From: a virus
Taxonomy: Duplodnaviria; Caudoviricetes
DNA: 64,000 nt
Direction: 5' to 3' (one strand)
Virus record (IMG/VR): IMGVR_UViG_3300043177_000122
Span: 1 to 64,000 of that record
In this document: one piece after another, positions 20,356-20,442 of the stretch
How positions within the stretch are numbered: the first letter of the stretch is position 1
Layout: each line of letters opens with the position of its first letter
Translations under genes and position numbers: made by a program
Notes under the pieces: model-generated
Told to the model about the DNA's origin: nothing
Database searches by the model: none
Seen by the model: only the letters and a program-made list of their open reading frames with translations

Positions 20356-20442
20356 CCCGCCTGACGCGATCCTCGGAAGGATCTCCGGTCTGTAAAACCG
20401 GCGCCCAAGTGCTAAGTGGTTCGACTCCATCAGACGGGACCA
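20356..20442 (+). tRNA. Sec-like/allo-tRNA-like body with GTA (Tyr) anticodon
   Basis: CCCGCCTGA/TCAGACGGG acceptor (9/3 or 8/4), 6-bp D stem GATCCT-CGGA-AGGATC, CCGGT-CTGTAAA-ACCGG, ACCA end. Confidence 0.75.

Follow-up and report, generated by a model that had tools for sequence, protein, structure and literature searches.

The tRNA gene at positions 20356–20442 (+) of a phage genome raises the question of what a tRNA does that carries a tyrosine anticodon (GUA) on an irregular cloverleaf. [quoted passage not shown] We propose that the gene very probably encodes the working tyrosine tRNA of the phage, built on a non-canonical (8/4) cloverleaf, and we base this on the tRNA fold, its conservation, its synteny, its exclusive link to the GUA anticodon and the presence of a tyrosyl-tRNA synthetase (TyrRS) in the same phage.

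The Phage Genome and Its tRNA Array

The DNA that was analyzed, referred to here as the window, is a stretch of 64 kb that forms the first part of a 358,993-bp IMG/VR virus record (G000), which is linear and 83% complete according to CheckV. Nearly all of the open reading frames in the window are on the + strand. The record represents a huge phage with its own set of translation-related genes, and ARAGORN identifies 57 tRNA genes in it, 38 of which are inside the window. They serve 19 amino acids and include two CUA suppressors, and the tRNA at 20356–20442 is the only one of the 57 that is called as a tyrosine tRNA. Upstream of it is a gene of family phrog_29208 (19299–19820, +) with weak similarity to nucleotidyltransferases such as NMNAT, and downstream is a tRNA-Pro(UGG) (20536–20612, +). 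Both serve as syntenic markers, and the phrog_29208 gene is also found upstream of tRNA-Tyr in 27 related loci.

The tRNA region of the phage also contains a complete class-A bacterial RNase P RNA (36384–36715, +; RF00010, 270.8 bits), which is a candidate for the 5′ processing enzyme of the tRNA array and, by extension, possibly of the tRNA-Tyr. Other genes in the window include a GIY-YIG-type homing endonuclease (phrog_314; 16309–17127, +) and an RNA-binding protein (phrog_850; 13335–14960, +), both upstream of the tRNA array, and an RNA-ligase-like gene at 60275–62080.

Structure of the tRNA Gene

The gene is 87 nt long and includes an encoded CCA end. It is preceded by a conserved 5′ leader, TTGTCGGTAT (20346–20355, +), that ends exactly at tRNA position 1. 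The leader motif, TGTC(A/G)G(C/T)TAT, is present before most of the 8/4 tRNA-Tyr genes described below and, among the four sister-phage tRNA-Tyr genes of canonical (7/5) type, before three, and because this shared motif ends at tRNA position 1, C20356 is fixed as nucleotide 1. The 5′ strand of the acceptor stem (8 nt, 20356–20363, +) therefore begins with C1 and pairs with 20431–20438 (+), the 8-nt 3′ strand that contains G72 and is assigned from covariation and RNAalifold. The eight acceptor pairs in this copy include one mismatch at the fifth pair (C20360.A20434), and A20364-U20430 is a possible ninth pair. The linker from the acceptor to the D stem (20364–20367, +) is ACGC if the acceptor stem has 8 bp and CGC if it has 9 bp. 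The D arm (20368–20383, +) consists of a 5-bp stem (20368–20372/20379–20383) and a loop (20373–20378) with an invariant GG, and in the window copy U20373-A20378 can extend the stem to 6 bp (20368–20373/20378–20383) with the loop CGGA. The anticodon arm (20385–20401, +) has a 5-bp stem and a 7-nt loop, CUGUAAA, with the GUA anticodon at 20392–20394. It is followed by a 14-nt variable region (20402–20415, +) made up of 1 nt, a short stem (G20403-C20412 and C20404-G20411) with its loop, and 3 nt. The T arm (20416–20430, +) has a 4-bp stem (20416–20419/20427–20430) that includes one G.U pair and has the loop UUCGACU, and the gene ends at 20439–20442 (+) with the discriminator A73 (A20439) and the genome-encoded CCA (20440–20442). 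A 7/5 fold of this copy would require the mismatch A20415.C20431. The features from which the original prediction had started, namely 8–9 acceptor pairs with one C.A, a T stem of 3–4 bp, a 6-bp D stem with a 4-nt loop and the need for an A.C mismatch in a 7/5 fold, can thus all be found in the window sequence.

The general tRNA model of Rfam, RF00005 (gathering threshold of 29 bits), gives no match to 20356–20442 at either the gathering or the E-value threshold. The best Rfam match is to the tRNA-Sec model RF01852, at 36.8 bits, which is below its gathering score of 47, and this is the only tRNA in the window for which the Sec model wins. ARAGORN calls a tRNA-Tyr(GTA) at 20360–20442 by forcing a 7-bp acceptor stem, which starts 4 nt late at the 5′ end and contains two non-pairs. 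The folding energy of the single sequence is no better than that of its shuffles (z = -0.60), and hence the case for any particular fold rests on comparison with relatives.

Relatives of the tRNA in Other Phage Genomes

Two handles were used to find related loci, the phage TyrRS and the gene upstream of the tRNA (19299–19820). They led to three IMG/VR records with an 8/4 tRNA-Tyr, namely G001, G009 and G003, of which G003 (481 kb) is 100% complete, and to four sister records (L021, L022, L023, and L025) in which the corresponding slot, flanked by the same upstream gene and by tRNA-Pro(UGG), is occupied by a tRNA-Tyr(GUA). The tRNA-Tyr of the four sister records is a canonical 7/5 molecule with G1-C72, A73 and a class-II variable arm, and three of the four pass RF00005 with 44–56 bits. 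The 7/5-type records are 1–21% fragments, and no TyrRS is found within those fragments.

Metagenome contigs were scanned with a pattern in which the bases of the D arm, anticodon loop (with GUA required) and T loop were fixed and the acceptor and T stems were left free. It gave 32 matches, all of which are family members inside similar tRNA arrays. In total, IMG/VR and the metagenome contigs yielded 25 further distinct versions of the tRNA, every one in the same phage tRNA array, and the alignment used throughout (A2) comprises 26 distinct sequences including the window copy, with the sampling bias that the 8/4 loci were recovered by an 8/4-specific pattern. Applied to the genome_contigs collection of 185,579 species, the same pattern, which overlooks members that differ at the fixed bases, gave three matches, all of them non-tRNA chance hits, and revealed no cellular genome that carries the tRNA. 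Since only chance matches were found among these species, the family appears, as far as pattern scans reach, to be confined to one phage clade. Two further patterns run on IMG/VR, a strict one of 26 nt and one based on the D arm, retrieved the three related records only, and INPHARED, a set of phage genomes from GenBank, contained no match when searched at near identity with the 4 kb surrounding the tRNA. A 24-row tree of the protein encoded by the upstream flanking gene did not separate a single from a repeated origin of the 8/4 form.

The Family Has an 8/4 Cloverleaf

The comparative evidence decides between the possible folds. When the 8/4 structure is placed on the alignment, its five helices are paired in 95.8% of the cells and 17 of the 25 pairs have compensatory double changes, and none of 500 shuffles came up to these values. 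Controls in which the structure was slid by one to three columns were paired in 34–47% of the cells. RNAalifold returned the same 8/4 cloverleaf when no structure was supplied. All eight acceptor pairs have double changes across the 26 sequences, and the eighth (columns 8:78), which distinguishes 8/4 from 7/5, is Watson-Crick in every one of them (14 GC, nine AU, and three UA). The pair specific to a 7/5 fold (columns 62:78) is formed in 10 of the 26 and the ninth acceptor pair specific to a 9/3 fold (columns 9:77) in just two. The fourth T-stem pair (columns 63:77) is paired throughout (24 GC and two GU), as is the whole of the T stem (100% of cells). The fifth acceptor pair (5:68) is mismatched in six sequences, including the window copy.

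The remaining helices behave similarly. All cells of the 5-bp D stem (100%) are paired and three of its pairs have double changes, and a sixth D-stem pair (columns 18:23) is formed in four of the 26 sequences. All five pairs of the anticodon stem have double changes and 99.2% of its cells are paired, while the variable stem has two near-invariant pairs and a third that forms in six sequences. The family architecture then combines an acceptor stem of 8 bp with a linker of 4 nt that begins with an invariant A, a D stem of 5 bp closing the 6-nt loop NNGGNA, an anticodon stem of 5 bp, a short stem in the variable region and a T stem of 4 bp. The loop hallmarks of elongator tRNAs (Rfam clan CL00001), including U33, a purine at position 37, and the T loop UUCGANU, are present in all 26 sequences. 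The GG of the D loop, positions 32–37 of the anticodon loop and the first five bases of the T loop are likewise constant (26/26), although their constancy is not independent evidence because the GG and the loop bases were required by the retrieval pattern. The discriminator position was left free by that pattern and is nevertheless A73 in all 26, and CCA is encoded in all homologues but one.

On this evidence the fold of the family is 8/4, as judged from covariation among natural sequences. Of the two folds offered by the original prediction, 8/4 is upheld by the universal eighth pair, and 9/3 can be set aside because the ninth pair forms in so few members. The Sec-like D arm of 6 bp with a 4-nt loop can be formed in the window copy, but it appears to be a property of this copy and not of the family, since the sixth pair is so rarely formed and the D arm of the family is one of 5 bp and a 6-nt loop.

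Probable Tyrosine Identity and the Phage TyrRS

Several lines of evidence connect the 8/4 body with tyrosine. G34-U35-A36 is present in all 26 copies, having been required by the pattern in the metagenome scan, and a scan of IMG/VR with a pattern that left the anticodon free returned GUA copies only. Other anticodons on the 8/4 body are excluded in IMG/VR and in the retrieved arrays, the metagenome scan having been restricted to GUA. In three genomes, G000, G001, and the complete G003, the 8/4 tRNA is the only element with both a tyrosine anticodon loop and a T loop. When a covariance model of the 8/4 family (R1) is run over four phage genomes and over related arrays totaling 244 kb, family members score 80–103 bits and nothing else exceeds 44 bits, and the next-best matches include canonical 7/5 tRNA-Tyr genes. 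The 8/4 form and the canonical form, as represented by L022, have the same variable-arm layout, with 1 nt, a 3-bp stem, a 3-nt loop and 3 nt.

Outside the window (95570–96835 of G000) the phage has a gene for a full TyrRS of bacterial type with 421 residues. It matches TIGR00234 with 369 bits, has an S4-like C-terminal domain and aligns with the TyrRS of Bacillus stearothermophilus (2ts1) at 310 bits. A TrpRS gene is located near the TyrRS gene. The tyrosine codons TAY make up 3.5% of the 76,008 codons in 215 ORFs. They include those in the phage TyrRS gene for two tyrosines that are conserved in the TyrRS alignment, which we take to be Tyr34 and Tyr169 of the B. stearothermophilus enzyme. Taken as a reading of the sequence, the 8/4 tRNA most likely still carries tyrosine and does not recode.

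The 1:72 base pair introduces a qualification. It is C1-G72 in 23 of the 26 sequences and G1-C72 in three (L040, L051, and L053), whereas G1-C72 is the usual pair in bacterial tRNA-Tyr, and so charging by an ordinary bacterial TyrRS is not guaranteed.

Comparison With Canonical and Other Non-Canonical tRNAs

Among the closest molecules for comparison are the canonical 7/5 tRNA-Tyr of the sister phages L021, L022, L023, and L025. They have the GUA anticodon, A73, variable-arm layout, T-loop sequence and encoded CCA in common with the 8/4 form, occupy the same genomic slot and, in three of four cases, have the same leader. The 8/4 family differs in the division of the acceptor branch and in having C1-G72 instead of G1-C72 in 23 of its 26 members. 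In place of the 2-nt linker, 4-bp D stem, and 7-nt D loop of the canonical form it has 4 nt, 5 bp, and 6 nt, respectively, and, unlike the canonical form, it is not reported by RF00005.

The tRNAs of the 8/4 and 9/3 types were defined by Mukai et al. (2017, NAR 45:2776; PMC5389517), who found that some phages have 8/4 structures for cognate tRNA-Ser and tRNA-His in their tRNA clusters. The tRNA-Tyr described here resembles these in having a 12-bp branch split 8/4 and a location in a phage tRNA cluster, and in that its anticodon agrees with the identity elements of its body, so that it looks like a cognate tRNA and not like a suppressor. It differs in its amino acid, the likeness being one of architecture, in its 4-nt linker, 5-bp D stem and 6-nt loop, and in being paired with a phage-encoded TyrRS. 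The tRNA-Ser and tRNA-His are from phages of alpha-proteobacteria, whereas the tRNA-Tyr is from huge phages. In the main text of Mukai et al. (2017) tyrosine appears only in the title of a reference (PMC5389517), and in the searchable literature, represented for that paper by its main text, we found no natural 8/4 tRNA-Tyr. The only non-canonical tRNA-Tyr molecules that we found in the literature are synthetic designs (PMC6337575, PMC7590224). The best reading is therefore that of a cognate (8/4) tRNA-Tyr of the same kind as the phage tRNA-Ser and tRNA-His, with a new amino acid. Hence the structural class named in the original prediction, that of tRNAs with a non-canonical 12-bp acceptor branch, is retained, while the further step to an anticodon-independent allo-tRNA is not (see below).

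The match to RF01852 also calls for a comparison with tRNA-Sec, which the window copy resembles in its longer acceptor stem and compact D arm. A tRNA-Sec has a 13-bp branch (8/5 or 9/4), the anticodon UCA, a long variable arm, and the discriminator G73, whereas the 8/4 tRNA-Tyr has a 12-bp branch, GUA, a short variable arm, and A73. The identification as a tRNA-Sec was rejected on the basis of the branch length, the anticodon and the score below the 47-bit gathering threshold.

Proposed Function and Alternative Explanations

We infer the processing, charging and use of the 8/4 tRNA-Tyr on the ribosome as follows. It would be transcribed as part of the tRNA array, and RNase P, for which the phage has an RNA of its own, would then cleave at the conserved junction TAT|C. 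It would be charged with tyrosine by virtue of A73, G34-U35-A36 and the variable arm, and the enzyme could be the bacterial-type TyrRS of the phage, the TyrRS of the host, or both. EF-Tu is expected to accept and carry it because the coaxial stack of acceptor and T stems is still 12 bp long, and UAU and UAC would then be read as tyrosine on the ribosome. That the linker is longer and the D arm has changed its dimensions is plausibly a consequence of moving the helix junction by one pair toward the T loop.

A possible, though tentative, refinement of this proposal is that the 8/4 architecture and the C1-G72 pair make the tRNA mainly a substrate of the phage TyrRS, or resistant to host nucleases that cleave the tRNA-Tyr of the host, or both. 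The tRNA would still carry tyrosine, and the decoding of tyrosine codons would survive the destruction of the tRNA-Tyr of the host. The phage has its own TyrRS, the 1:72 pair is reversed compared to the canonical tRNA-Tyr of the sister phages, and among all of the tRNAs in the window it is only the tRNA-Tyr that has been redesigned, all of which fits such a role. Against it, three members of the family have G1-C72. The Septu/PtuAB and Retron-Eco7 systems have been reported to cut the variable loop of host tRNA-Tyr, with phage tRNA-Tyr genes rescuing the infection (PMC11555353, PMC13096335), yet it is precisely the variable arm, the reported target of PtuAB, that retains the canonical layout in the 8/4 form. 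We consider it unlikely that the C1-G72 tRNA and the phage TyrRS are a private pair in the full sense, with the tRNA poorly used by the host TyrRS and unrecognized by host nucleases that target tRNA-Tyr, which may be those of the PtuAB/Septu or Retron-Eco7 type or anticodon nucleases. Insulation from the host is nonetheless one attractive idea for why the clade might have adopted the 8/4 design.

It is improbable that the gene encodes a tRNA-like RNA that functions off the ribosome, for example as a nuclease decoy, a primer or a module related to Ro60 and Y RNA. Several tRNA-like RNAs without a usable anticodon are present in the same array, and there is a precedent in the irregular 8/4 tRNAs of Mukai et al., which are charged yet are not used in translation (PMC5389517). 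However, the anticodon loop of the 8/4 tRNA is canonical, with U33, G34-U35-A36, and A37, the 12-bp stack is kept and A73-CCA is present. The gene also occupies the position of the canonical tRNA-Tyr of the sister phages, a complete genome yielded no other tRNA-Tyr, and nothing in the analysis points to a role outside of translation.

Very little probability remains for an allo-tRNA-like missense tRNA that would be charged with serine, leucine or alanine regardless of its anticodon and would insert them at UAY codons. The 8/4 fold and the possible Sec-like D arm of the window copy with its match to the tRNA-Sec model are in its favor, as is A73, since A73 is also the discriminator of tRNA-Leu. 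Known allo-tRNAs are of the 8/4 and 9/3 types and come from Acidobacteria, Clostridia, and Proteobacteria (PMC5389517; reviewed in PMC7609411), and they are characterized by a long variable arm, G73 or U73, and diverse anticodons (PMC5389517; PMC7609411). The phage tRNA is like them in its 8/4 acceptor branch, in being caught by the tRNA-Sec covariance model and, for the window copy, in the possible 6-bp/4-nt D arm. In contrast to them, the family has A73 throughout in place of G73 or U73, a variable stem of just 2–3 bp, an anticodon stem of 5 bp that is not lengthened (columns 29 and 47 on either side of it being U and C), and a D arm of 5 bp with a 6-nt loop in 22 of 26 members. Position 3:70 is C-G in 24 of 26 sequences, and not G3:U70. 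Allo-tRNAs use 35 different anticodons, whereas GUA is the only one found on this body in IMG/VR, the four phage genomes and the related arrays, and their genes are often near toxin-antitoxin systems and not in a phage tRNA array. The assignment as a functional allo-tRNA was rejected on the grounds of A73, the short variable stem, the lack of G3:U70, and the single anticodon, and the predicted charging without regard to the anticodon is likewise not supported. The predicted insertion of a non-tyrosine residue at UAC and UAU is not borne out either, as the tRNA stands at the locus where sister phages have the canonical tRNA-Tyr, no other candidate tRNA-Tyr was found in three genomes, and the phage encodes a TyrRS. 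With TAY at about 3.5% of codons, including those of the two conserved TyrRS tyrosines, missense reading at UAY would moreover damage the whole proteome.

It is barely credible that the gene is a decaying pseudogene or a normal 7/5 tRNA-Tyr that has some mismatches, for although ARAGORN forces a 7-bp acceptor call and the acceptor stem of the window copy contains a C.A mismatch, covariation favors pair 8:78 over 62:78, the fold drawn by ARAGORN has its two non-pairs and a 5′ end 4 nt away from the conserved leader junction, and 26 distinct versions are conserved with compensatory changes.

Implications

If the 8/4 tRNA-Tyr functions as proposed, tyrosine joins Ser, His, Cys, and Sec as one of the few amino acids that are served naturally by tRNAs with an 8/4 branch, and with 26 natural variants the covariation support is unusually clean. 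Within this clade of huge phages the canonical tRNA-Tyr has apparently been swapped for the 8/4 form at the same locus, with a TyrRS also encoded, and the clade offers a natural setting in which to ask how much of a tRNA core can be rebuilt while its identity is kept. Were the tRNA to prove mainly a substrate of the phage enzyme, the two would be a natural and structurally orthogonal tRNA/synthetase pair, evolved by huge phages, that sustains tyrosine decoding under attack by the host, and if the pair is insulated from host enzymes it could be a scaffold for expansion of the genetic code.

There are also consequences for annotation. RF00005 misses the 8/4 tRNA-Tyr in the loci tested, and ARAGORN makes no call for it in nine of the 32 metagenome loci (L028, L033, L034, L038, L040, L048, L049, L056, and L058). 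As these genes are missed by the one and skipped or given the wrong start by the other, the tRNA complements of huge phages are under-annotated, and in routine annotation such phages would be reported as being without a tRNA-Tyr.

Neighboring and Look-Alike tRNA-Like Genes

Two further tRNA-like genes are located upstream of the tRNA-Tyr. In the gene at 20133–20213 (+; RF00005, 42.7 bits) CCA is encoded and the acceptor, D, and T arms are normal. Its anticodon loop is replaced by 16 nt that may form a mini-hairpin with a GUAA tetraloop, and it therefore has no usable anticodon. A homologue is present at the same place in L015. The second gene (20219–20290, +; RF00005, 25.6 bits), just upstream of the tRNA-Tyr, has the loop CGUACAG with a G at position 33. 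Its counterparts in L015 (at about 1408–1483) and L016 (at about 1358–1433) have UUAAA-rich loops of 8–9 nt and are labeled by ARAGORN as 'tRNA-??? (taaa)' or 'Phe(aaa)', and the members of this family thus have a conserved body and a variable anticodon loop.

Additional genes resemble the 8/4 tRNA-Tyr or its canonical counterpart. On a 444-kb metagenome contig (L053) a class-II tRNA with a 7/5 fold, G1-C72 and A73 (21–103, −) is found directly 3′ of the 8/4 tRNA-Tyr. Its body looks like that of a canonical tRNA-Tyr and its anticodon loop is CGAUAAA, and it may be a decaying or altered copy of the canonical tRNA-Tyr beside the 8/4 form. Genes for tRNA(UAU) at 23469–23562 (+; 94 nt) in the window and at 8542–8623 in L024 combine a long variable region, C1-G72 and A73 with a 7/5 fold. 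The best non-member match of R1 in G009, at 41.8 bits, is also to a tRNA(UAU), and its candidacy as an 8/4 paralogue was rejected, as it is a 7/5 molecule with a long variable region. Finally, a 100-nt match to RF00005 at 31672–31771 (+; 42.8 bits), for which there is no ARAGORN call, has about 32 nt between the strands of its anticodon stem and could represent a tRNA with an intron or some other interruption.
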